The notes below the pieces were generated by a model. It had not been told where the DNA came from and did not search any database. It saw nothing but the letters and a program-made list of their open reading frames with translations. The position numbers were made by a program, and so were the translations under genes. Below are positions 15,166 through 37,388 of a stretch of DNA of 64,000 nt, piece after piece (position 1 is the stretch's first letter; each line of letters starts with the position of its first letter). The DNA comes from an uncultured Thermodesulfobacteriota bacterium (GTDB lineage: Bacteria > Desulfobacterota > S145-22): the NCBI GenBank assembly GCA_964577975.1, contig CAZOBB010000068.1, forward strand, positions 2,041-66,040, given 5' to 3'.

Positions 15166-15285
15166 GATTCATATCTTTTTGTCAATATTTCTGTTATAAA
15201 GTTTGGGATTGTTAAAGAGAAGAGAACCCTTGAGGTGAGACGAAAGGGTTTTCTGTCTTTATGGAATGGGGAAAGGAGGGAAAAA

Positions 15286-17397
15286 GTGCGAAGTAACCGA
15301 TGGTCTGCAGGAGAACTGAAACAGTACCTTGATCGTTATGCGTCTCAATGGGGAGAGGCGTTGGCGATTAGGGTTTATACATCTCAATTGCTGGGAAGGG
15401 ACAAAGAGCTCGTTCTTCATGGAGGGGGCAATACGTCGGTAAAGGCGCCTTTTACAACCTTGTTGCAGGAAGAGGTACCAGCGGTCTATGTCAAAGGCTC
15501 GGGATGGGACATGGCGACGACGGGACCTGAAGGATTTGTGCCTTTGGATATGAAAGCGCTGAAAAAGTTGAGGAAGCTTGCCGCAATAGAAGACAGAGTA
15601 ATGTTTGAGCAGTTTCGTCTCTCCATGTTGCGGATCCTTTCTTTCCATCCATCCATCGAGGCCTTGGCCCATGCTTGGTTACCGTATAAATATGTGGATC
15701 ATACCCATGCCAATGCGATCTTGGCACTTACGAATCAGGAAAACGGGGAGGAGAGAGTGCGGGAGGCGCTTGGGGAAGATGTCGTTATACGTCCGTATCT
15801 TCATCCCGGTTTTCACCTGAGCAAGGATCTTGCCGAAGTGGTTGAGAAGGTGCCGGATTGCAAGGGGGTTGTTCTGTTGCACCATGGCCTTTTTACCTTT
15901 CATGACGATGCCCGCGTGTCGTACGAGACGCATATCGAGTTGGTGAATCGCGCTGAGGCCTACCTGAGAACAAAGGCTTCCAAAACATTTTTCGATGTTC
16001 GGATAGAAAAAAAGGTGTCCCCTTTCTTTCCCCAGTTTGTTCCTATTATTCGAGGGCTTCTTGCGGAAAAGAGAGAGAATCCAGACCATCCTTACGCCCC
16101 CGTGATCCTTCGGACACTGGTGGAAGAAGAGGTTGGAAACATCGTTACGCATCCCCAGTTGGAAAAGATCGTGGAAGGACCAGTCTTGACGGCGGATTTT
16201 CTTATCCGTACCAAACCGTGGTTGGCATGGGTTAAGAATCCTCGGGTGGATGACATGGATGCGCTGCGCCGGCAACTTACCGAAGCGGTGGATGCGTTTT
16301 CGGAAAAATATGTGGCCTATTACCAGAGAGGGAGGGAAAGAACGGGGAGAAAACTTCCGATGTTTAATCCCAAACCTCGGATCCTTGTGATTCAAGGAGT
16401 GGGGGTTTTCTGTTCCGGAGATACGTTGAAAGAGGCAATGATAACGGCCGATTTGGCGTTGGCTACCTTAAGGGTAAAACGTGACATTGCGGCGATGGGT
16501 GGGGTGTACAAAGGGATTGAAGAAGCAAGGTTGTTTGAGATGGAATATTGGGAGCCCCAAATCGCGAAGCTTTCTGCGGGGAATAGAGGAGTGTTAGAGG
16601 GAAAGGTGGCTGTGATTACGGGGGCCGCGGGTGCGATTGGTTCAGCGATTTGTAGACGGCTTTTGGAAGAGGGGTGTGTCGTCGTGGGGACGGATTTGGA
16701 AGGGGATCCGTTGAGGGGTTTGGCGGAGGAATTGGAAGGAAGATTTGGGAAGAATTTCTTTGCGTTGCCGATGGACGTGACGGATGAGGCGTCGGTTCGG
16801 CAGGCCTTCGATACGATTCTCCTTCAGTTTGGAGGAGTGGACATTCTCGTGCCCAATGCGGGGGTGGCGTTTGTGAAACCGCTGGACGAGCTTGAGCTGG
16901 AGGATTTTCGAAGGGTTCACCGCGTAAACGTGGAAGGAACCCTCCTTTTCTTGAAATGGGGAGGGCGGATCCTGAAGAGCCAGGGGACAGGAGGGGATAT
17001 TATCTTTATCTCCACTAAGAATGTGCCCGCCCCTGGAGCGAGTTTTGGTGCGTATAGCGCGACGAAGGCCGCCGCACACCAGTTGGCGAGGGTAGCGAGT
17101 TTGGAGTTGGCTCCCTATGGAATTCGAGTGAATAATTTGGCCCCGGATGCCGTCTTTAGGGGAGAGGAAGGTAGAAAATCGGGTTTGTGGGAGGTTTGTG
17201 GACCTGAAAGGATGAAGAGTCGAGGGCTCGACGAAAAAGGGTTGGAGGAATATTATCGCAACAGGAACCTTCTCAAGATTCAGGTTAGAGCGGAGCATGT
17301 GGCGAATGGGGTGGTCTTTTTCGCCTCACGCCAGACCCCTACGACGGGGGCGACCCTCCCGGTGGACGGGGGATTGCCGGAAGCGACACCTCGATAG
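15286..17397 (+). CDS. Bifunctional class-II aldolase (rhamnulose-1-phosphate aldolase-like) / short-chain dehydrogenase
   Basis: GTG start after a GGAAAGGAGGG RBS; N-terminal aldolase-II/adducin fold; C-terminal SDR with TGAAGAIG Rossmann motif and YSATKAA catalytic YxxxK. Confidence 0.8.
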   Translation: MRSNRWSAGELKQYLDRYASQWGEALAIRVYTSQLLGRDKELVLHGGGNTSVKAPFTTLLQEEVPAVYVKGSGWDMATTGPEGFVPLDMKALKKLRKLAAIEDRVMFEQFRLSMLRILSFHPSIEALAHAWLPYKYVDHTHANAILALTNQENGEERVREALGEDVVIRPYLHPGFHLSKDLAEVVEKVPDCKGVVLLHHGLFTFHDDARVSYETHIELVNRAEAYLRTKASKTFFDVRIEKKVSPFFPQFVPIIRGLLAEKRENPDHPYAPVILRTLVEEEVGNIVTHPQLEKIVEGPVLTADFLIRTKPWLAWVKNPRVDDMDALRRQLTEAVDAFSEKYVAYYQRGRERTGRKLPMFNPKPRILVIQGVGVFCSGDTLKEAMITADLALATLRVKRDIAAMGGVYKGIEEARLFEMEYWEPQIAKLSAGNRGVLEGKVAVITGAAGAIGSAICRRLLEEGCVVVGTDLEGDPLRGLAEELEGRFGKNFFALPMDVTDEASVRQAFDTILLQFGGVDILVPNAGVAFVKPLDELELEDFRRVHRVNVEGTLLFLKWGGRILKSQGTGGDIIFISTKNVPAPGASFGAYSATKAAAHQLARVASLELAPYGIRVNNLAPDAVFRGEEGRKSGLWEVCGPERMKSRGLDEKGLEEYYRNRNLLKIQVRAEHVANGVVFFASRQTPTTGATLPVDGGLPEATPR

Positions 17398-22713: not shown

Positions 22714-22782
22714 TAAGAGCGGTATCTTATTTTTGTCTTTGGCAGGTTTTGACATATAAAAGAAGGGTGATAGAATCGATTT

Positions 22783-24258
22783 ATGCGACTGGATCGTAGA
22801 AAAGAAGGTATAGAAGAACAACCAGAGAATTTAAAAAGGATTCCTTTCATTTTCACTATGGCCGGGTTGGCGGTAGGTCTTTTCCTCGTGCTTATGGCTT
22901 ATGTCATCCAATATGTTGCAGGGCCTCCCATTGCCAATGCCAATGGTTCTTTCTGGGATACACTCAAATCCCTTCATGCCGCCAATCCCATCCTTTTTCT
23001 TATGGATAATACCCCATGGGTGTTGGCGACGGTGGCGGCCGTCATGGGGAAAAGGCAAAAAGAGAAGGCGATCTATCTATGGAAGCTCAAAGGGATGTTG
23101 AGACGACGGAGTGCAGAGTTGCGCTCCATTCGGAGCCGTTATACCAAGCTGTTTGAAGGTGTCAATGAGTGTCTGTTCATCACCACCCATGAAGGGGAGA
23201 TCATCGACATCAACCAGGCAGGAATTACCCTTTTCAAGATGGAGGAATTGGTTGGGGAAAAGGGCAAGAACAAGGGAGCGATTCGGGAAATTTTAAGGGA
23301 AAAGGGTGTGAGTGCCAAGACTTTTTATGCCAGTGAGGAGGATGGGGCCCGCTTGATAGAAGAATTGGAGAAGAAGGGAATTGTTTCCAATTATCAGATA
23401 CGAATGAAGCGTTTCAATGGAGAGATATTCGAGGCCCTTTTTACGATGTCGGTGAAAACGGACGATGGAGGGGGGAAGCTTTTTTTTGGGCGAATTATTG
23501 ATCTGAGTTCTGTGAAACGGGCGGAGCTGCTATTGGCGAAGGCGAATCTGGAATTGGAGAGAAAAAATCGGGAGCTGATGGAGGCGTTTTCGGAGCTTCA
23601 GGTCTTGAAGGTACGGTATGAAAAGCGCAGTATCGAGCTTGAGAGGGCAAATAGGGAACTTCATCGTTTGAACAGGTTGCTGGCAGACATGGCGATTACG
23701 GATGGATTGACGGGGCTTTATAATCATCGCCATTTTAGGGGGCTTTTAAAGAGGGAATGGGAAAGGGCCAATAGAGAAAAGACAAATTTTTGCGTCATGA
23801 TGATTGATATCGATTATTTTAAAGCCTTTAATGATACGTGGGGGCATCAGTTTGGAGATGAGATACTTAAGACCGTCGCGTATACCATTAAACGTCAAAT
23901 GAGAAGCTATGATGTCGTGGCGAGGTACGGAGGAGAAGAATTTTGTGTTATCCTGCCGGGCACGGATTTGGAAACCTGTTATACGATTGCGCAGCGTATT
24001 CGTGAGGCGGTCGAAGACAAAATTCTCCTGTCTGGCCCGGAAGAGAAGAAAGAAAAACTTACCGTAAGTATAGGTGTCACTATTTTCCTTCCTCAAGAAG
24101 GAGACCGCCGCACATCCGATCAGATTCTTCAAGATGCGGATGTAGCCCTTTATCGTGCAAAGAGCAAGGGACGAAACAGGGTTGAGATGCATCGAAGAGA
24201 TTTGTCGGCGGAACGAGGGTACCTTTCCTTTTCATTGAGAGGAAGTAATGGGGGATGA
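22783..24258 (+). CDS. Membrane-anchored PAS-GGDEF diguanylate cyclase
   Basis: N-terminal TM helices; PAS-like segment; coiled coil; GGDEF domain with RYGGEEF active site and RxxD I-site-like motif; stop overlaps the next gene (ATGA). Confidence 0.85.
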   Translation: MRLDRRKEGIEEQPENLKRIPFIFTMAGLAVGLFLVLMAYVIQYVAGPPIANANGSFWDTLKSLHAANPILFLMDNTPWVLATVAAVMGKRQKEKAIYLWKLKGMLRRRSAELRSIRSRYTKLFEGVNECLFITTHEGEIIDINQAGITLFKMEELVGEKGKNKGAIREILREKGVSAKTFYASEEDGARLIEELEKKGIVSNYQIRMKRFNGEIFEALFTMSVKTDDGGGKLFFGRIIDLSSVKRAELLLAKANLELERKNRELMEAFSELQVLKVRYEKRSIELERANRELHRLNRLLADMAITDGLTGLYNHRHFRGLLKREWERANREKTNFCVMMIDIDYFKAFNDTWGHQFGDEILKTVAYTIKRQMRSYDVVARYGGEEFCVILPGTDLETCYTIAQRIREAVEDKILLSGPEEKKEKLTVSIGVTIFLPQEGDRRTSDQILQDADVALYRAKSKGRNRVEMHRRDLSAERGYLSFSLRGSNGG

Positions 24259-24944
24259 TGGCGGGAATCCTTTTGGCCTCTGGCCTATCACGACGATTCG
24301 GCTCTCAGAAGCTACTTTTTTCGCCGGGAGGGGGAAAAACCTTATTCGAGCAGGTTCTTTCCAATCATTTGAGATCGGGGTTGGATCCGTTGGTGGTGGT
24401 TGTATCGGAAGGTATGCTCGACAACATGAAAAATGGAAAGATGATTGGAATTACCGTGCATGAGAGGGGAGAGACAAACGAGTCGGAAGAGGGGAAATGG
24501 TTGGTTCTTGCCACCCCGTGGGGGAGAGGCCGATTGGTGGTGAACGAAGACCCGGAGAGAGGAATGGCTCGTTCTCTTCAAGAGGGGTTGTCCGTGTTGT
24601 CGGAAGAGGAAAAGGAAGAAGGTGTCTTGATCTCCCTCGCCGATATGCCAGGGATAACCCCTTCGGTGATAGAACGGGTGGTGACGGAATACCGACGAAG
24701 GAACGCAAAAATTCTCGTTCCAACATATCGCGGACAGATTGGGCATCCCGTTGTGGTCCATGAGCCTACGTTTCGGAAGGAGATAGCGGAGATTGAAGGG
24801 GACGTGGGCTTGCGCCATCTTTTGCGACGCTTTTGGGAGGAAGTGGAAACGGTTCCATGGGGAGATCCCTCCGTGGTGATGGATATTGATACCCCCTCAG
24901 ACGTGGAAAAGGTTTTTGCCGAAGGAGGGTGGGAATGGCCGTAA
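24255..24944 (+). CDS. mocA: MobA-like NTP transferase, YgfJ/MocA family (molybdenum cofactor cytidylyltransferase-like accessory protein)
   Basis: N-terminal GILLASGLSRRFGSQKLL nucleotidyltransferase motif; about 229 aa with an internal insertion; ATGA-coupled to the upstream GGDEF gene; clustered with yqeB/yqeC homologues. Confidence 0.7.
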   Translation: MMAGILLASGLSRRFGSQKLLFSPGGGKTLFEQVLSNHLRSGLDPLVVVVSEGMLDNMKNGKMIGITVHERGETNESEEGKWLVLATPWGRGRLVVNEDPERGMARSLQEGLSVLSEEEKEEGVLISLADMPGITPSVIERVVTEYRRRNAKILVPTYRGQIGHPVVVHEPTFRKEIAEIEGDVGLRHLLRRFWEEVETVPWGDPSVVMDIDTPSDVEKVFAEGGWEWP

Positions 24945-25693
24945 TTGATGAATTGATTGACTATGGGATGAAGCTTGACACAGGTCTTCGGGTTCAAGAT
25001 GTACGGATCGGTCTTGGTTACACTGCTGTACAGATTGAGGGCGGTGAAGTGGGGCTGGCCTATACCTTTCGCGGGGAGGCGGGACATACCTGTACCGCCG
25101 TTAAAATGGCGGGAGAACTCGCGGGCAAACCGGTGGGGCACCTCCTTGCCTTTATGAAAGAGGGGGATGTCGTGTCCGCGGCCGTGGGATTGGCGACCTT
25201 CAACGCCCTTTTACAACGACGTCTTCCGACGCCGGAGGGAGAAGATTTCTTCCCCATTATCCAATTGCAAGCTGGGGAAACGGTGGGGATGGTAGGTTTT
25301 TTCGGACCCGTTATCCCACTCATCCGTAAGGCGAGATGCGAGCTCAGGATTTTCGAGAAGAATCTCGCGCGGGGAGAGGGATTGTTTTCTCCCGAGAAGA
25401 TTCCTCAAAAGCTTCCGGAATGCTCGGTGGTTATCCTTTCTGCCACGACACTTATTAATCGTACCTTCGAGGAGGTTGTGGCGTATACAAGAGAGGCGAG
25501 GCATGTTGTTTTATTGGGCCCTTCTACTCCCCTTGTGCCGGAGGTAATGGGACGCTATGGGGTTACGTTGCTTGCGGGAATGAAGATTGTCCGTCCTGCC
25601 GCTGTCTTACGAATTGTCAGTGAAGGCGGAGGGACTCAAAGGTTGAGGGGAACCGTGGAAAAAATGGTTGTCTCGTGTAAAAAAGCGGGGTAG
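24935..25693 (+). CDS. DUF4213-DUF364 protein (Rossmann-like, putative heavy-metal chelation domain)
   Basis: GGAGG RBS 6 nt upstream; N-terminal VRIGLGYTAVQIEGGEVGLAYTF (DUF4213-like); C-terminal ...VVILSATTLINRTFEEV...VVLLGPSTPLVPEV...GGGTQRL (DUF364-like). Called from remembered family signatures, no database search run. Confidence 0.55.
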   Translation: MAVIDELIDYGMKLDTGLRVQDVRIGLGYTAVQIEGGEVGLAYTFRGEAGHTCTAVKMAGELAGKPVGHLLAFMKEGDVVSAAVGLATFNALLQRRLPTPEGEDFFPIIQLQAGETVGMVGFFGPVIPLIRKARCELRIFEKNLARGEGLFSPEKIPQKLPECSVVILSATTLINRTFEEVVAYTREARHVVLLGPSTPLVPEVMGRYGVTLLAGMKIVRPAAVLRIVSEGGGTQRLRGTVEKMVVSCKKAG

Positions 25694-25730
25694 TTTCAGG
25701 AATGTTCAAAGTGATAGAGAGAAAGACGGG

Positions 25731-26759
25731 ATGAAAAAGTTACCCATTGAAGAGGCCATCGGCAAACCATTGGCCAACGATATGACGCAAATTATTCCGG
25801 GTAAGGTGAAGGGGCCGGCCTTCAAACGGGGCCATATCTTGCGGGAAGAGGACATCCCACGGCTCAAAGATATGGGAAAAGCCCATGTGTATGTCCTTGA
25901 TCCCGATAAAGGGTACATCCACGAGGATGACGCGGCGATTGCTTTGTCCAATGCCTATGGAGGTGAAGAGTTCGAGCGGGTGGGACCCAGCGAAGGGCGG
26001 ATCAACCTCAAGGCCAAGTTCCGGGGCCTCTTGAAGATAAACCTTGATCTTTTGACATTTATCAATGCGTCGGGTGAAATCATCTGTTCCACGATTCATC
26101 AGCACACCGTCTGTGACGAGGGAGTGATTGTGGCCGCGACCCGTATCATCCCCGTGGCCATGGATGAAGAGGAGTTCAAGCGAGTTTTGGGTCGTGTGAA
26201 GACGGAAGGACCACTTCTGAGGCTGCTTCCTTTCGTAAGGAAACGCGTGGGTGTGGTTGTCACGGGAGAAGAGGTTTTTTCAGGTCGCATCCCTGACAGT
26301 TCCAAAAAGATTCTTTCTCCGAAGATTGAGGCCTTGGGAGGACGCATCGTCGCCCATGCGGTGTGCCCGGACGATGCGGAAGTTATTGGAGAAACGATTA
26401 CGAGGATGGTGCGTGGGGCCGCGTGCGATCTTATCATCACAACGGGCGGCCTTTCGGTAGATCCTGACGATGTCACCTTGGAGGGTATTGAAAAGAGTGG
26501 GGCACGGGTGGTTTCTTATGGCTCACCTATCCTTCCCGGTGCCATGTTTGCCTGCGCTTACCTGGGAAAGGTTCCGATCCTCGGCGTGCCGGCGGCGGTT
26601 TTCTATTTCAAAGCCACGGTCCTTGATATCTTCCTGCCGCGGGCCATGGCGGATGACCCCATTACCCGTGATGATGTCGTGGCCCTGGGGCACGGGGGGT
26701 TATGCCTCAACTGCAAGGTTTGTACCTATCCCGTTTGCCCGTTTGGAAAAGGGGTGTGA
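25731..26759 (+). CDS. Molybdopterin-binding protein (MoeA/MogA/CinA-type MoCF-biosynthesis domain) with C-terminal Cys-rich tail
   Basis: MoCF_biosynth signature (RVGVVVTGEEVFSGRIPDSS...DLIITTGGLSVDPDDVT); C-terminal CLNCKVCTYPVCPFGKG (C-x2-C-x2-C-x4-C). Confidence 0.65.
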   Translation: MKKLPIEEAIGKPLANDMTQIIPGKVKGPAFKRGHILREEDIPRLKDMGKAHVYVLDPDKGYIHEDDAAIALSNAYGGEEFERVGPSEGRINLKAKFRGLLKINLDLLTFINASGEIICSTIHQHTVCDEGVIVAATRIIPVAMDEEEFKRVLGRVKTEGPLLRLLPFVRKRVGVVVTGEEVFSGRIPDSSKKILSPKIEALGGRIVAHAVCPDDAEVIGETITRMVRGAACDLIITTGGLSVDPDDVTLEGIEKSGARVVSYGSPILPGAMFACAYLGKVPILGVPAAVFYFKATVLDIFLPRAMADDPITRDDVVALGHGGLCLNCKVCTYPVCPFGKGV

Positions 26760-26761
26760 CC

Positions 26762-27487
26762 ATGGGAGAGATTTTGACACATGTTCTTGAGGCGTTCCGA
26801 GAGGTGATGACACCGCATTTTCGTCTTGATGAGCGAGTTTCTGTCATAGCCCGTCCCCTCACGGCGGAAGAGGCTATCGGACATCCCGAACACGACGACT
26901 ACCCCCTTCTGAAAGGGAAGGAACGGATGATGGAGGCCCATTTCAGAGGTACGCCGGGTCAAGCCTATACCGACCAGGTTGGGAATTTCGAGGGAACTTT
27001 AGGAGATGTGCTGGCGCTTTCTCTTGATTCCAACTACCGTCGAGCCGTGTTGGTTGCCACGATCAACGCCGTGCTTCGCCATCTGGGTGTCATCGAAAAA
27101 AGCTGTCATTGCAAAGATGAGGATCCGGTAATATGCGCGCCAAAACTCCCGGGGGTACTCGCCGCTTTTGGCCCCCAGCGCGTGGGTATGATCGGCCACC
27201 AGCCTAGGCTGTTGGAAGTTGTTTCGAAGCGCTTCCAAGTCCGAATATGTGATCGGGATCCGGATCAGGTCTCCCGGCAAAAATCTGGCGTGACGGTTGA
27301 ACCACCGGAGGCGTGGCCGGATATTGTTTCGTGGTGCGATCTTATTCTTGCCACGGGGACGACCTTGGTGAATGATACGATTGATCATTTTGTGGTATCT
27401 GACAAGCCAACGGTCTTTTACGGAATAACCATTAGTGGCGCAGCCAAACTGCTCGATCTGAATCATTTCTGTCCTTTGGGAAGATGA
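26762..27487 (+). CDS. Second DUF364-like paralog (Rossmann-like putative metal-chelation domain) with a Cys/His cluster
   Basis: C-terminal VGMIGHQPRLLEV...DLILATGTTLVNDTIDHF...VFYGITISGAAKLL parallels the DUF364 part of 24935..25693; SCHCKDEDPVIC cluster; N-terminal part diverges from DUF4213. Confidence 0.5.
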   Translation: MGEILTHVLEAFREVMTPHFRLDERVSVIARPLTAEEAIGHPEHDDYPLLKGKERMMEAHFRGTPGQAYTDQVGNFEGTLGDVLALSLDSNYRRAVLVATINAVLRHLGVIEKSCHCKDEDPVICAPKLPGVLAAFGPQRVGMIGHQPRLLEVVSKRFQVRICDRDPDQVSRQKSGVTVEPPEAWPDIVSWCDLILATGTTLVNDTIDHFVVSDKPTVFYGITISGAAKLLDLNHFCPLGR

Positions 27488-28284
27488 AACCACTCGATTT
27501 AAAAATCTTGATTCGTGGGGCGGGAGAAATGGCAAGCGGGGTGGCATACCGTTTGTACCAGAGCCATTTCTCGATTCTCATGACGGAGATTCCGTCTCCC
27601 CTCTCCATTCGTCGTGCGGTCTGTTTTTCAGAGGCGGTATATGAAGGCGAAACGGAAGTGGAAGGAGTGAAAGCCGTCCGGATTGGGAAGACGGAAGAGA
27701 TAGAAACCGTGTGGCGCCACAGGAAGATACCCGTTCTTGTTGATCCGGATTTGACTGTAAGGAATAGGGTCTCCTTCCACGTCGTCGTAGACGCGGCCAT
27801 GGCGAAACGAAATCTTGGTACGTTCAAGGATTTTGCCCCTCTCGTTATAGGTTTGGGTCCAGGCTTCACGGCGGGCAGAGATGTGGATTGCGTCATAGAA
27901 ACGAATCGAGGGCATCATTTGGCTCGGGTTGTCAGAGAAGGAATGGCAGAGCCTGACACGGGAATTCCAGGAAGTACTCTTGGGTACACGGTGGAACGTG
28001 TTCTGCGCGCCCCGTCTGAGGGGATTTTTCGATCGGTCAAGGTTATTGGAGACCACATAGCCGCGGGAGAGACGGTGGGATGGGTGGGTGAAACCCCTAT
28101 GATTTCCCAGATTGAGGGCGTGCTTCGAGGAATCTTGCGGGATGGCGTGTCCGTTAGCAAAGGGATGAAGTCGGGGGACGTGGATCCGAGAGGGCAACGG
28201 ATCAACTGTTTTACCATTTCCGACAAAGCGCGAGCGGTTGGAGGGGGAGTCCTCGAGGCAATCCTTCACCGCTTCAACGAGTAG
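27484..28284 (+). CDS. yqeB: YqeB-family (XdhC-like Rossmann) selenium-dependent molybdenum hydroxylase system protein
   Basis: ATGA overlap with the upstream gene; N-terminal LKILIRGAGEMASGVAYRL XdhC/CoxI-type Rossmann motif; about 266 aa, consistent with the YqeB family. Confidence 0.65.
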   Translation: MKPLDLKILIRGAGEMASGVAYRLYQSHFSILMTEIPSPLSIRRAVCFSEAVYEGETEVEGVKAVRIGKTEEIETVWRHRKIPVLVDPDLTVRNRVSFHVVVDAAMAKRNLGTFKDFAPLVIGLGPGFTAGRDVDCVIETNRGHHLARVVREGMAEPDTGIPGSTLGYTVERVLRAPSEGIFRSVKVIGDHIAAGETVGWVGETPMISQIEGVLRGILRDGVSVSKGMKSGDVDPRGQRINCFTISDKARAVGGGVLEAILHRFNE

Positions 28285-28310
28285 AAGTTACGGGCAAGGG
28301 ATGGGATGCC

Positions 28311-29114
28311 GTGGGCGCGCCGGACTCTGCGAAGGTCCTATCGGTCGAAGATCTAATTACCCAACTTTTCCAGAAGCGAAAAGTAAATATTGCGTTGACG
28401 GGAGGCGGAGGAAAGACAACGTTCCTTGGGGTTTTGGGACGAGCGTTCGCGTCACGGGGCACACCGGTTTTATTGACAACAACCACCAAGGTTCAAAATC
28501 CATTTCCGATAGAGGTGGATCGCTTTTTCGTGTCAACGGATGCAAAGGAATTGAAGGGGCTCGTTTTGGGGGCATGGCGGCCGGGAATTCTCGGCATGGC
28601 GGTGGCAAGACCCTATGGGGATCATAAATGGGAGGGAGTATCATCCGAATGGATCGACGAACTCTTCAGCACCGTGCGAGAGGGAGCCATTTTAAACGAG
28701 GCGGACGGGGCTTTCCGCTTGCCCATTAAAGCGCCGGCGAGTCACGAACCGGTCATTCCCGCTTCTACGACGCACGTGCTACCTGTCTTGGGGCTGACGG
28801 CCATTGGGGCCCCCCTCGATGAAGCCCATGCCTTTCGGCCGCGCTTGATTGCCGATATAACGGGTCTTGCTCTGGGAGAACCTATGGATGAAGCAGCCCT
28901 GGCGCGTCTGATACTCCATCCCCGGGGATTGGCGAAAGATGCGCCCCAAGATGCGGAGATTGTTCCATTCCTGAATCAGGCGGACGACGGACGCCGTCGG
29001 GAAATGGGTTATCGGATCGCCGAGCGTGTCCTTTCGGCTTCCTTATCGGTGAAAACGGTGCTGATAGGCACATTAAATCCCTTCGTGCGTTTCGAGATTG
29101 TGAAACGCCCCTGA
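28311..29114 (+). CDS. yqeC: YqeC-family probable selenium-dependent hydroxylase accessory protein
   Basis: KVNIALTGGGGKTTFLGVL P-loop-like glycine-rich motif near the N-terminus; about 267 aa; pairing with yqeB is the classic signature of this family. Confidence 0.65.
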   Translation: MGAPDSAKVLSVEDLITQLFQKRKVNIALTGGGGKTTFLGVLGRAFASRGTPVLLTTTTKVQNPFPIEVDRFFVSTDAKELKGLVLGAWRPGILGMAVARPYGDHKWEGVSSEWIDELFSTVREGAILNEADGAFRLPIKAPASHEPVIPASTTHVLPVLGLTAIGAPLDEAHAFRPRLIADITGLALGEPMDEAALARLILHPRGLAKDAPQDAEIVPFLNQADDGRRREMGYRIAERVLSASLSVKTVLIGTLNPFVRFEIVKRP

Positions 29115-29138: not shown

Positions 29139-29729
29139 TTAAGAGGCTTCGGTAAAGAGGACGGCGAGAATCTTCGCGGGGGTGTCGCCTGCGCAGGCGA
29201 CACGGTGAGGAAGTTTGGAGTCGTAGTAGATGGAATCACCCGGTGAGAGGGTGTCCTTGAAATCTCCGAGCACCACTTCCATTTCCCCCTCCAGAACGTA
29301 GATAAATTCTTCGCCACTGTGAGAGGAGAGTTTTTCGTGTTTCACGGTAGCGGGTTCCAACGTGACAATGAAGGGTTCCATCTTCCGGTTCTTCTTGTCA
29401 TACCCGAGCGATTCGTAGGTGTATCCGTAATTGACGCCTTCCTTGGAGGCGAAGCGAGAAATGAGCTTTCTCTCGTTCTTTCGAACGATGGAGTAGGAGT
29501 GTCCTTTCTTCTCACCAAAGATTTTACTCAAGGGAACCTCCAAGGCATTGGCGATTTGGATGAGCGTGCCGAGGGAAGGAGAGACAAGGTGGTTTTCAAT
29601 TTGAGAGATGAGGGCCGAGGAGTAGCCCGTTTTGTCCGCTAAATCCTTGAGGCTCAACTTCTTTTCCTCTCGAACCTTTTTGATTCTTTCTCCAACTTTT
29701 GTTAACGCGACCTGGTCCGTTTTCTCCAT
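29139..29729 (-). CDS. XRE-family HTH plus cupin-domain transcriptional regulator
   Basis: N-terminal HTH_XRE (LTKVGERIKKVREEKKLSLKDLADKTGYSSALISQIEN); C-terminal cupin (EEFIYVLEGEMEVVLGDFKDTLSPGDSIYYDSKLPHRV); 12 nt downstream of the OFOR gamma gene on the same strand. Confidence 0.8.
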   Translation of the reverse strand: MEKTDQVALTKVGERIKKVREEKKLSLKDLADKTGYSSALISQIENHLVSPSLGTLIQIANALEVPLSKIFGEKKGHSYSIVRKNERKLISRFASKEGVNYGYTYESLGYDKKNRKMEPFIVTLEPATVKHEKLSSHSGEEFIYVLEGEMEVVLGDFKDTLSPGDSIYYDSKLPHRVACAGDTPAKILAVLFTEAS

Positions 29730-35600: not shown

Positions 35601-36165
35601 AGGAAGGGGAACGGGATTGGGACTGGCGTCGGTGTATGGGATCATCAAGAATCACGGAGGAGTTATCGGGGTCGAGAGTGAAATAGGGCAAGGGACAAGT
35701 TTTACGATTTATCTTCCCGCGACGGAAAAAGTTATTTTTCAGCGAAAAGAGGAGACGAGAGACGAGGTGGTTTCGGGGAAGGGGAAAATATTATTGGTCG
35801 ATGATGAAGAAAGGATTCTCGATGTGGGTAAGCAGTTGCTGGAGACCCTTGGCTATGATGTTATTGCAACAAAAAGCGGGGAAGAGGCCCTTCGGATCTT
35901 TAAGAAAGAGAAGGGAGCATTTGACCTGGTTGTCTTGGATATGATTATGCCGGGAATGGGAGGGGCGGAAGTTTTTGATGCATTGAGGCGCTTGGATCCC
36001 AACATAAAGGTTTTGCTAGCCAGTGGTTATAGCTTGAGTGGTCAAGCCTCGAAGATTATGGAGAAAGGTTGCAATGGTTTTATTCAGAAGCCTTTTTCAA
36101 TGGAAAGACTTTCGAAGAAGATTCAAGAAGTGATGAGAGGAAGAAAAGAGGAAAAAACGCCTTAG
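32617..36165 (+). CDS. Multi-PAS hybrid sensor histidine kinase with C-terminal receiver domain
   Basis: About 1180 aa; at least six PAS/PAC-like repeats separated by ...SEERYRKL... linkers; HisKA (IAHDFNNLLMGI); HATPase (DTGVGMD...GTGLGLASV); REC domain (ILLVDDEE...VLDMIMPGMGG). Confidence 0.8.
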   Translation: MGEYQDLKKEIRRLKRKLVSCEKRLEKVRREGKALQSLIRNSALGIVVIDKDHIVQSCNRVFEKLFQYRKSEIVGKNLDEVVAKGEAIAEARGYTDRTLKGKSVRGLGMRFRKDGTSMFVEFFAVPAIVDGEVVGAYGIYQDVSEREELALALKESEERYRKLVDLSPLAIGVFDLEGRILFGNDAAAKVFGIEDVRAFLGKKIFDLLDPTIFDLIRPRFNGFRKGILQPKVEKKIKSIDGRIKHIEVVSSLLSYDGRPAILAVFQDITERIYLRRALQENEMRLKRVLEVSPLGMGLVKNRMMQWHNRAMSRMLGYEPGELRGKEARIIYPNEKEYRRSGKMMASLGKDRRVVEFDSTWVRKNGEVFDCHLWYSLLDEDESGTTVLAIAEDATKRKEMERRLRESEERYRLLVNFSPLPICVFDREYRIFFGNPAAVRLIEAESEEDYVGKSLMDFMAPEFRPIAQKRIASLLQGDRNLPPIIFKALTLKGNEKFVEVYSIPVVFDEKRSVMSIFLDVTEKIKTEERLKREEERYRKLYGEAKRQEGLYRSLLDSSADAIVIYDLKGNVEFISPSFTKIFGWTFDELKGNRIPFVPESEVVSSLQTIHTLLETGQPVHGFETRRLTKDGRILDVSISASCYNDHEGKRRGMLVVLRDVTERKRVEMRVRESEKRFRDLYDSVSDLIYTQDLKGRFLSANRALVDILGVTPEECIGKPTSDFMKEGMKPRFEKEYLEGIKKEGHHEGVGVYFSKDGRKVYLEYRSTLVKTKDGVPYISGIARDVTDRIRADRRIKRLREEMLQAQKMEAIGTLAGGIAHDFNNLLMGIQGNVSLLKMQADPQSEEYKRLKSIEEYIRSGSDLTMQLLGFARGGRYEIKATNLNALIDKEVELFGRTKKEIEIHVKLQEDLWAVEVDQGQMGQVFLNLFVNAWQAMPKGGSIFVQTENLMLEKGLESYPTLKPGRYVKIVVADTGVGMDKKTLERIFEPFFTTKEKGRGTGLGLASVYGIIKNHGGVIGVESEIGQGTSFTIYLPATEKVIFQRKEETRDEVVSGKGKILLVDDEERILDVGKQLLETLGYDVIATKSGEEALRIFKKEKGAFDLVVLDMIMPGMGGAEVFDALRRLDPNIKVLLASGYSLSGQASKIMEKGCNGFIQKPFSMERLSKKIQEVMRGRKEEKTP

Positions 36166-37388
36166 GGGATAGCTCGCCGCGCAAGATTTTCCACAGCTTT
36201 CATCACTGTTTTGATGTCCTCTTCCGTGTTGAAATAGCCTATGCTTATACGAATGGTTCCCTCAGGAAACGTGCCCAATGCTTTATGGGCGAGGGGGGCG
36301 CAGTGAAGGCCTGTTCTAACAAGAATATCGTACTTTGTGTTAAGCAAGGCTCCGGCTTCTGAAGGGAGGGGGCCGTCTTCCGTCCAGGCGAGATTGATGG
36401 CGCCGCATCCCCCCAGGGTTTGCTCTTCCCCCCCCGGAAGGAGGCTGTCGAAGGTGAGGGATACCGTCGCGGTTTGTTTGGCCGGGTCCAAGGGACCATA
36501 AAGGGTGACTCCCGAAAGGTCTCGGAGTCCTTTAAGAAGTAGGGTCAAAAGCTTTTGTTCATGGATGAGGATGGAGTCTATTCCAGTCTTGAGAATAAAA
36601 TCGACTCCCGCCCCAAGCCCCGCGATGCCTACGTTGTTCTGGGTTCCGCTTTCAAAAGCATCGGGGAGGAATTCGGGTTGCTCCAGGCTTTCGGAGAGGC
36701 TTCCCGTTCCTCCTCGTTTCAAGGGGCGTAGGGAGAGACCCTCTCGGAAGTAAAAACCACCCGTTCCTTGAGGTCCCATGAGTCCTTTGTGTCCCGTGAA
36801 TGTCAAGAAATCTATGCCGTCCTTCACCACGTCTATGGGAAAGTGCCCTGCTGTTTGGGCCGTATCGACGAGAAGGGGGATGTCTCCGGCGATATTCCGG
36901 ATGCTCTTAAGATCCTGGATGGTTCCACATACGTTGGAAGCGTGGTTGACAACGAGAAGCCGCGTTTTCCTTGTGAGGGCTTTTTTTAGGGCGTCCAGAT
37001 CAAGGATGCCTTGGGAATCACAGGGGACAATGTCATAAGTTATGATTCCCTTGTTTTTTAAATAAGTCAGAGGCCGGAGAACGGCATTGTGTTCCATCGC
37101 CGTGGCAACAACGTGGTCACCCTCCTCGAGAAAGCCGAGAAGAACGGTGTTGATGGCTTCCGTGATGTTGAGGGTAAAGACGATGCGCGAGGGATCGGCG
37201 ATATGGAAGAGTTTTGCCAAGCTTTCACGTGTCGAGCGGACGATTTTCTCGGCTTCCTGAGCCAGCGCATGTCCGGATCTCCCTGGGTTTGCTCCCACGT
37301 TGGTCATGAAATGAATCATGGCTTCAATGACTTCTGGTGGCTTCGGGAATGAGGTGGCGGCGTTGTCCAAATAGACGAGTTTTTTCAT
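36162..37388 (-). CDS. Class-V aminotransferase-fold PLP enzyme (cysteine desulfurase / selenocysteine lyase-like)
   Basis: 408 aa; N-terminus VYLDNAATSFPKP typical of NifS/SufS/CsdA; PLP-lysine region FLTFTGHKGLMGPQGTGGF. Confidence 0.8.
   Translation of the reverse strand: MKKLVYLDNAATSFPKPPEVIEAMIHFMTNVGANPGRSGHALAQEAEKIVRSTRESLAKLFHIADPSRIVFTLNITEAINTVLLGFLEEGDHVVATAMEHNAVLRPLTYLKNKGIITYDIVPCDSQGILDLDALKKALTRKTRLLVVNHASNVCGTIQDLKSIRNIAGDIPLLVDTAQTAGHFPIDVVKDGIDFLTFTGHKGLMGPQGTGGFYFREGLSLRPLKRGGTGSLSESLEQPEFLPDAFESGTQNNVGIAGLGAGVDFILKTGIDSILIHEQKLLTLLLKGLRDLSGVTLYGPLDPAKQTATVSLTFDSLLPGGEEQTLGGCGAINLAWTEDGPLPSEAGALLNTKYDILVRTGLHCAPLAHKALGTFPEGTIRISIGYFNTEEDIKTVMKAVENLARRAIP

Follow-up and report, generated by a model that had tools for sequence, protein, structure and literature searches.

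A conserved gene cluster joining two DUF364 proteins to a MocA-like transferase, a MoCF-domain protein and YqeB/YqeC in a Thermodesulfobacteriota-type bacterium

The maturation system of the selenium-dependent molybdenum hydroxylases (SDMHs) is marked in genomes by three accessory proteins, YqeB, YqeC and YgfJ (MocA), and it is with this set that we compare a cluster of six genes in a 64,000-nucleotide stretch of DNA (contig CAZOBB010000068.1 of assembly GCA_964577975.1, positions 2,041 to 66,040; hereafter the window) from an uncultured Thermodesulfobacteriota bacterium. MocA adds cytidine monophosphate (CMP) to give the molybdopterin cytosine dinucleotide (MCD) cofactor of bacterial xanthine oxidase (XO)-family enzymes, and the accessory set as a whole was reportedly also treated by Zhang et al. 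in 2008. Knowledge of the trio, and of what it signifies in comparative genomics, goes back to that year (Haft and Self 2008, PMC2276186; Johnstone and Self 2024, PMC11448449): the YqeB family TIGR03309 is confined to selD-positive genomes (PMC2276186), and a yqeB deletion in C. difficile phenocopies the loss of selD on xanthine and urate (2024; PMC11448449). In addition, SelD is required for the activity of purified DOPDH (bioRxiv 10.1101/2025.04.24.650524). Of the routes by which selenium is incorporated, the installation of the labile selenium ligand in molybdenum hydroxylases has been described as the least understood (PMC11448449), and the SDMH trait has been reported mainly in Firmicutes and Enterobacterales (PMC5322559), whereas the host here is of Thermodesulfobacteriota type. 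New relative to the literature searched are two points: DUF364 genes recur in close linkage with those for MocA and a MoCF-domain protein, optionally with those for YqeB and YqeC, and the cassette, in a form with no client enzyme beside it, occurs widely among Thermodesulfobacteriota-type metagenomic contigs.

Since 2010, DUF364 has stood as an orphan of structural genomics. Genes of the family adjoin molybdenum, tungsten and vanadium transporters, and the DUF364 structure resembles Rossmann-type methyltransferases, which led to the proposal that the family synthesises a pterin, flavin or siderophore derivative (PMC2954201). A DUF364 gene within the modABC operon of M. maripaludis was found to be cofit with nifH (bioRxiv 10.1101/2024.03.05.583561), and the DUF364 enzyme Orf5, or MeAZE synthase, cyclises 4''-methyl-SAM (SAM, S-adenosylmethionine; 2026, PMC12930334). 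Together, Orf5 and the yqeB deletion phenotype overturn the statement, made in an earlier reading of this DNA from its letters alone (the sequence-only reading), that no function had been shown experimentally for YqeB, YqeC or DUF364. In the canonical route of molybdenum cofactor (Moco) biosynthesis, MogA and MoeA are followed by MocA or MobA and then by an XdhC-type chaperone, a type of protein that holds, sulfurates and inserts the MCD cofactor (PMC2997495), and the tungsten pathway runs through MoeA1, MobB, MobA and FdhD (PMC13197769). The window cluster resembles both routes in offering candidates for an insertase, a P-loop helper, a nucleotidyltransferase and a ligand-completing chaperone. 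It differs from them in that its candidate insertase lacks the MoeA_N and MoeA_C domains but carries a four-cysteine (Cys4) tail, and in having YqeC for MobB and YqeB for XdhC or FdhD; nothing in the canonical route corresponds to its DUF364 proteins.

The cluster (24255-29114) holds six open reading frames (ORFs) on the plus strand, as tightly packed as the sequence-only reading had described. They are a mocA-like gene (24255-24944, 229 amino acids), duf364A (24935-25693, 252 amino acids), the gene for the MoCF-domain protein, here called MoCF341 (25731-26759, 342 amino acids), duf364B (26762-27487, 241 amino acids), yqeB (27484-28284, 266 amino acids) and yqeC (28311-29114, 267 amino acids, with a GTG start). 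The mocA-like gene and duf364A overlap by 10 nt and duf364B meets yqeB in an ATGA overlap, while the remaining spacings are 37 nt (duf364A to the MoCF341 gene), 2 nt (MoCF341 gene to duf364B) and 26 nt (yqeB to yqeC). All six products are present residue for residue in a public protein collection, as genes called on a 68,096-bp contig, which fixes their starts, and the gene calls agree with those of a 5.3-kb copy of that contig (L081).

Profile searches bore out the identification of YqeB and YqeC, and the family matches of the six products, given here and below, greatly exceed chance. YqeB scores 359.3 bits against TIGR03309 (cutoff 220) over profile positions 1-255 of 256, and matches no Pfam family at E 0.01 or better, the Pfam XdhC domains (PF02625 and PF13478) included. 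YqeC, whose gene adjoins yqeB, is a P-loop protein (GGGGKTT) that scores 173.9 bits against TIGR03172 (cutoff 73) and matches PF19842 at 7e-35. The product of the mocA-like gene is a MobA-like nucleoside triphosphate (NTP) transferase (PF12804, 3e-29) with an insertion of about 40 amino acids and a partial match to NF045665 (the DVU_1551 family). Its best NCBIfam match is TIGR03310 (MocA/YgfJ), at 123.3 bits against a cutoff of 186.45, so that the proposed YgfJ/MocA identity survives as the apparent closest relationship, to the MocA/YgfJ Moco cytidylyltransferases, but not at the level of that family's cutoff. Searches of PDB sequences gave no meaningful match for YqeB, YqeC or DUF364B. The cluster is therefore like the SDMH set in its adjacent YqeB and YqeC, both above their cutoffs, and in its MocA-like transferase, and unlike it in the two inserted DUF364 genes, in the sub-cutoff score of the transferase and in the lack of selD, TusA-DsrE, XdhC and a hydroxylase nearby. 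Further support for a shared pathway comes from other lineages, in which YqeC occurs as single-ORF fusions with MocA, in either order (L018, L020, L026, L033, L038, L048, L064 and L078), and with XdhC (L059, L062 and L065). Such fusions, which come from loci of various Firmicutes, Anaerolineae and Fusobacterium, physically connect YqeC with cytidylylation and with the chaperone step.

Two DUF364 paralogues are indeed present, the one established by its domains and the other by a partial domain match together with its predicted fold. DUF364A is a canonical two-domain protein of DUF4213 plus DUF364 (PF04016, 3e-41, 141 bits; PF13938, 2.5e-18, 66.5 bits), with PDB sequence matches to 3NPG (1.6e-14) and 3L5O (1.2e-12) and 1050 homologues. 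DUF364B matches PF04016 in part (2e-12, 47 bits, cutoff 23) and PF13938 not at all. Its AlphaFold2 (AF2) model, with a predicted local distance difference test (pLDDT) of 83, gave full-length Foldseek matches to 3NPG (E 2e-8) and 3L5O (E 8e-6) over 237-247 columns at a template modelling (TM) score of about 0.5, and on this prediction DUF364B shares the two-domain DUF364 fold. Weak fold matches of the same model include SAM- and S-adenosylhomocysteine (SAH)-binding proteins such as HcgC and SAH hydrolase. The fold of the described proteins Dhaf4260 (3L5O), PH1506 (3NPG), the modABC-linked protein of M. maripaludis and Orf5 would accordingly be common to both window proteins, which are distant paralogues of one another at 26% identity. 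DUF364B has invariant residues H44, D46, H116, C117, C125, C163 and C237, and invariant segments GxPxHDDYPLLKGKE, KSCHCKDxDPVxCA and HFCPLGR. Unlike in known DUF364 proteins, the pair sits among a Moco cytidylyltransferase, a MoCF protein and YqeB/YqeC, and the His/Cys loops of DUF364B are lineage-specific. The accessible text of the literature that mentions DUF364 appears to hold no description of this arrangement. Since a distant DUF364A-like protein of Saccharofermentanales has an unrelated gene context, the link to Moco is limited to particular DUF364 clades and does not extend to the whole family.

MoCF domains bind molybdopterin or its adenylated form (MPT-AMP). In MoCF341, such a domain (PF00994, 2.5e-22, residues 195-321 of the long ORF) is the only Pfam match, and the overall architecture comprises an N-terminal domain of about 170 amino acids, the MoCF domain (the MogA/MoaB/MoeA-domain-III type) and a C-terminal Cys4 motif. 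The protein belongs to a very large family of 340-residue 'molybdopterin-binding proteins'. The sequence-only reading had called it MoeA-like, of which the MoCF domain stands; we rejected its identification as a MoeA, as it does not have the MoeA_N, MoCF_biosynth and MoeA_C architecture (neither MoeA_N nor MoeA_C was found with Pfam) and every NCBIfam MoeA model scores far under its cutoff. The C-terminus, GHGGLCLxCxxCxYPxCPFGK, is invariant across the 29 aligned homologues and places four cysteines (CxxCxxCxxxxC) within residues 320-342. In the AF2 model (pLDDT 85), which is free of metal, the Cys4 motif is disordered, and the model aligns closely with single MoCF domains only, matching MoeA more weakly and in part. 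The motif looks like an iron-sulfur (Fe-S) or metal site, and we found no mention of it in the related literature.

We then compared about 170 related loci. Neighbours of yqeB were counted by clustering ORFs over the best 80 yqeB loci from species-representative genomes and ten context loci (L081-L090), with annotation of cluster representatives. Among these roughly 90 loci, YqeC was present at 55, MocA at 39, XdhC at 37, full-length MoCF341 at 36 and the XO-family large subunit at 35, followed by TusA-DsrE (24), SelD and the FAD subunit (22 each) and a class V aminotransferase (20), with the 2Fe-2S subunit, MoaA, MoaC, MogA and ModABC at about 12-15 loci each. These counts make the genes of the window cluster, apart from the DUF364 pair, standard members of the yqeB system. 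The MoCF341 homologues are 40-45% identical and come mostly from Firmicutes, where the gene often lies directly beside yqeB, inside Moco-biosynthesis blocks that have no 400-residue MoeA within 10 kb. MoCF341 is thus an established companion of yqeB, a pairing of which we found no discussion in the related literature, and it is not the expansion peculiar to this locus that had been suspected. The DUF364 pair was found in only the three closest relatives among the best 80 yqeB loci.

The six-gene cluster occupies the same housekeeping neighbourhood in related genomes (L002, L003, L083-L086 and L096). The copies in L083-L086 always follow L9 - dnaB - csgG - pgsA - (eno/GGDEF), and in relatives the gene order of the cluster is conserved, with proteins 68-86% identical, which indicates purifying selection. 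In these syntenic relatives, the 10 kb around the cluster contain neither a hydroxylase gene nor selD. About 1.9 kb downstream of yqeC, two of them carry a PhsA-like dimethyl sulfoxide reductase (DMSOR)-family enzyme with a 4Fe-4S subunit, a radical SAM protein and a NifU-like protein (L084, 14329-18573; L086, 5690-9934). This block is not in the window, and the L083 contig stops 1.1 kb past yqeC. We dropped the DMSOR-family enzyme as the main candidate client on account of its absence from the window, with L083 too short to tell.

The wider distribution of the cluster was followed by scanning metagenome contigs with a DUF364B alignment, which returned 80 loci, on many of which the contig ends within the locus. 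MoCF341 lies immediately upstream of DUF364B in 52 of the 80, MocA is also present at 28, components of a SsuA/NMT1-type ATP-binding cassette (ABC) importer at 19-30, YqeB, YqeC and XdhC at 12-13 and a PadR regulator at 11; an XO-family gene and selD are each nearby at only one. The complete form of the locus, in a second lineage with these partners, reads PadR - YqeB - (methyltransferase) - YqeC - XdhC - substrate-binding protein - permease - ATPase - MocA - MoCF341 - DUF364B and was found in L087, L114, L120, L122, L124, L127, L129 and L149, where YqeB scores 375 bits. These PadR-type clusters have a separate XdhC gene, which the window does not, and in some of them (L087, L120 and L129) a methyltransferase gene is included. 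The importer lies between XdhC and MocA in L087 (5091-8214), L114, L120, L124, L127, L129 and L149. It is not of the ModA, TupA or WtpA type, and its substrate could be an oxyanion or a heterocycle.

Reduced forms occupy the same genomic slot: PadR - MocA - DUF364A - MoCF341 without YqeB and YqeC (L093 and L094), PadR - ABC - DUF364B (L090) and DUF364A alone (L091). Taken together, the full and reduced forms define a conserved core of MocA, one DUF364 protein (A or B) and MoCF341, which may be extended by YqeB, YqeC, XdhC and the importer. Among more distant DUF364B homologues, the gene comes after a SsuA-like importer or before ModA (L150-L174; ModA is beside DUF364B in L171 and L174), and DUF364A and DUF364B flank an ABC importer in L156 and L159, so that the link to metal-oxyanion ABC transporters known for DUF364 recurs among the homologues of DUF364B. 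The sequence-only reading described the cluster as an orphan. No client is encoded within the 64 kb, as it stated, but this is not an oddity of one genome, as detachment from the client is the norm in the Thermodesulfobacteriota-type clade. The occurrence of yqeB and yqeC in sediment contigs of this type, widespread and detached from a client, bears on how they can be used to predict purine- or selenium-dependent metabolism from metagenomes.

It seems reasonable to suggest, with a probability of roughly 0.6, that the cluster is a functional, vertically inherited operon that matures an MCD-type molybdenum cofactor for an XO-family hydroxylase encoded elsewhere in the genome. In such an operon, the DUF364 pair would receive or condition a metal oxyanion and pass it to the Cys4-bearing MoCF341, acting between oxyanion import and MoCF341. 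It is gene context that suggests this placement, as DUF364 genes adjoin ABC importers and MoCF341, and the invariant His/Cys loops, the reported link to molybdenum, tungsten and vanadium transporters (PMC2954201) and the cofitness with nifH are in keeping with it. MoCF341 would then serve as a MoeA-type insertase acting on molybdopterin, its Cys4 tail binding a metal or an Fe-S cluster, and the MocA-like transferase would add CMP. YqeC may act as a MobB-like P-loop helper, by analogy with the MoeA1-MobB-MobA-FdhD tungsten pathway (PMC13197769), and, together with the XdhC-like Rossmann protein YqeB, would complete the terminal chalcogenide ligand and hand the cofactor to the apo-enzyme. If the genome has selD, that ligand would be selenium.

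A more far-reaching version, which we offer tentatively, holds that DUF364 provides a missing step of molybdenum or tungsten cofactor synthesis, in which a dedicated ABC importer supplies it with the oxyanion, either as such or as a thio- or seleno-derivative, for transfer to the MoeA-unlike, Cys4-bearing MoCF insertase. Joined by MocA, and optionally by YqeB and YqeC, these proteins would make up an alternative insertion route that feeds enzymes encoded elsewhere, perhaps with a distinct selenium or tungsten cofactor. The main value of the locus lies in linking DUF364 to metal insertion into the molybdenum cofactor, and the recurrent gene set, with about 100 relatives, gives testable partners for both the selenium-ligand and the DUF364 problems.

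Several observations weigh against an operon that serves an XO-family hydroxylase. Using tblastn with reference proteins, we detected no SelD, XO-family large, FAD or 2Fe-2S subunit, TusA-DsrE, XdhC, MoaA, MoaC or ModA in the whole window, and selD, an XO-family hydroxylase, TusA-DsrE and XdhC are likewise missing within 10 kb in the syntenic relatives, where the nearest Moco enzyme (L084 and L086) is of the DMSOR family and not a hydroxylase. The MocA-like transferase does not reach the TIGR03310 equivalog cutoff, and MoCF341, which has neither MoeA_N nor MoeA_C, superposes well on solved structures only in its MoCF domain. In addition, the sole characterised DUF364 enzyme is a SAM-derivative cyclase and not a metal handler (PMC12930334), and a yqeC deletion in C. 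difficile has no phenotype (PMC11448449).

The scarcity of selD and hydroxylase genes near DUF364B, each at only 1 of the 80 loci, would fit a selenium-independent or differently targeted cassette, in which YqeB and YqeC act as generic XdhC- and MobB-like chaperones for the sulfurated molybdenum or tungsten cofactor of a non-XO enzyme of the DMSOR or aldehyde:ferredoxin oxidoreductase (AOR) family. The association of DUF364 with tungstate as well as molybdate transporters (PMC2954201), the tungsten selectivity that MoeA paralogues can have (PMC13197769) and the PhsA-like enzyme 1.9 kb past the cluster in L084 and L086 point the same way, as does the report that genomes lacking a complete selenium trait can have YqeB or YqeC homologues, whose roles may be unrelated to selenium (Peng et al., PMC5029168). 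We nevertheless regard this explanation as rather unlikely, given that a MocA-type cytidylyltransferase points to MCD, which is typical of bacterial XO-family enzymes, and that a YqeB of 359 bits is a true member of TIGR03309, a family found only in selD-positive genomes (PMC2276186). The neighbouring DMSOR-family enzyme, moreover, is absent from the window and not conserved, with the L083 contig too short to judge, and the window does contain a gene for an EF2568-family lyase-like protein, described below.

The SAM chemistry of Orf5 raises a different prospect, namely that the DUF364 pair are SAM-using, Orf5-like enzymes that make a small chelator or modify the pterin, such that the operon builds a structurally new cofactor variant. 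Besides being the activity of the only characterised DUF364 protein (PMC12930334), this would agree with the Rossmann methyltransferase-like structure and the pterin, flavin or siderophore derivative proposed on its basis (PMC2954201), with the weak matches of the DUF364B model to HcgC and SAH hydrolase, and with the methyltransferase gene inside the PadR-type clusters L087, L120 and L129. However, no non-ribosomal peptide synthetase, radical SAM C-methylase or other biosynthetic gene accompanies the pair in the window, a single DUF364 paralogue suffices in other lineages, and the invariant His/Cys loops of DUF364B and its place right after ABC importers are suited to ligand or metal handling; we think it improbable for these reasons. 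The lack of a client or selD nearby and the low MocA score might even suggest a decaying, non-functional remnant of a former hydroxylase locus, which is hardly credible for six intact ORFs with coupled junctions, a gene order shared by at least six related contigs at 68-86% identity and invariant catalytic-looking motifs.

With respect to the favoured maturation operon, a possible donor of its chalcogenide is encoded 7 kb downstream of the cluster on the minus strand (36162-37388). Its product is a class V aminotransferase of the EF2568 family, resembling cysteine desulfurases and selenocysteine lyases (TIGR01977, 458 bits, cutoff 377; NF040779 SclA, 350 bits, below the exception cutoff of 525). 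For the E. faecalis selD locus, Haft and Self listed the EF2568 family as the probable selenocysteine lyase (PMC2276186). Homologues occur in 20 of the 80 clustered yqeB loci, with many Firmicutes loci having one next to selD and yqeB; the homologue in L020, which lies beside selD, TusA-DsrE and yqeB, is 45% identical to the window protein. The sequence-only reading had missed this gene, with which the window is not devoid of selenium-linked markers, although the absence of a hydroxylase and of selD from it stands. The gene adjoins one for a PAS hybrid histidine kinase. In L084 and L086 the 10 kb around the cluster hold no homologue, and the L083 contig stops 1.1 kb past yqeC. We rejected it as a member of the operon on the grounds of its distance, its opposite strand and the lack of a homologue near the cluster in L084 and L086; that its product supplies sulfur or selenium is possible from its family, and the link to the cluster is a lead only.

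As the sequence-only reading had it, the cluster is flanked by a diguanylate cyclase and a ferredoxin oxidoreductase operon. The upstream gene (22783-24258, plus strand) encodes a PAS-GGDEF diguanylate cyclase (PF00990, 1e-50; PF13426), and its stop overlaps the mocA start as ATGA. In scans for promoters and terminators, which report consensus matches only, the best sigma-70-like site of the region (TTGACA-16-TAGAAT, 22749-22776) lies just upstream of this gene, after a terminator-like hairpin. Because of the ATGA overlap, the hairpin and the position of this site, the PAS-GGDEF gene may be the first of the transcription unit, with transcription starting upstream of it, and the operon would comprise seven genes rather than six if it is co-transcribed. 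The gene is outside the conserved core: it was found in L084 and L085 and is missing from L083, where enolase abuts mocA. A regulatory link between cyclic di-GMP and the operon is possible from this arrangement.

On the downstream side, the minus strand carries a gene for an HTH_3-cupin regulator (29139-29729), which converges on yqeC with 24 nt between the stop codons, and a three-subunit 2-oxoacid:ferredoxin oxidoreductase, the set that the regulator gene heads or ends. No link between the regulator gene and the cofactor cluster was found in relatives. Between 20000 and 38000, Rfam searches gave no RNA family, Moco riboswitches included.

The rest of the window is a housekeeping stretch (tolB-pal, L9, dnaB, enolase, leuA, leuCD, asd, gap-pgk-tpi and others) with, on the 3' side, rpoBC-sized ORFs, which were named by size, outside the family searches. 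The closest genomes to the window are metagenome-assembled genomes labelled Thermodesulfobacteriota, Syntrophaceae and 'Deltaproteobacteria'. Finally, upstream of L9 and dnaB, a plus-strand gene (15235-17397) encodes a 720-residue fusion of a class II aldolase domain with a short-chain dehydrogenase, and its position is kept in the relatives L083-L085.

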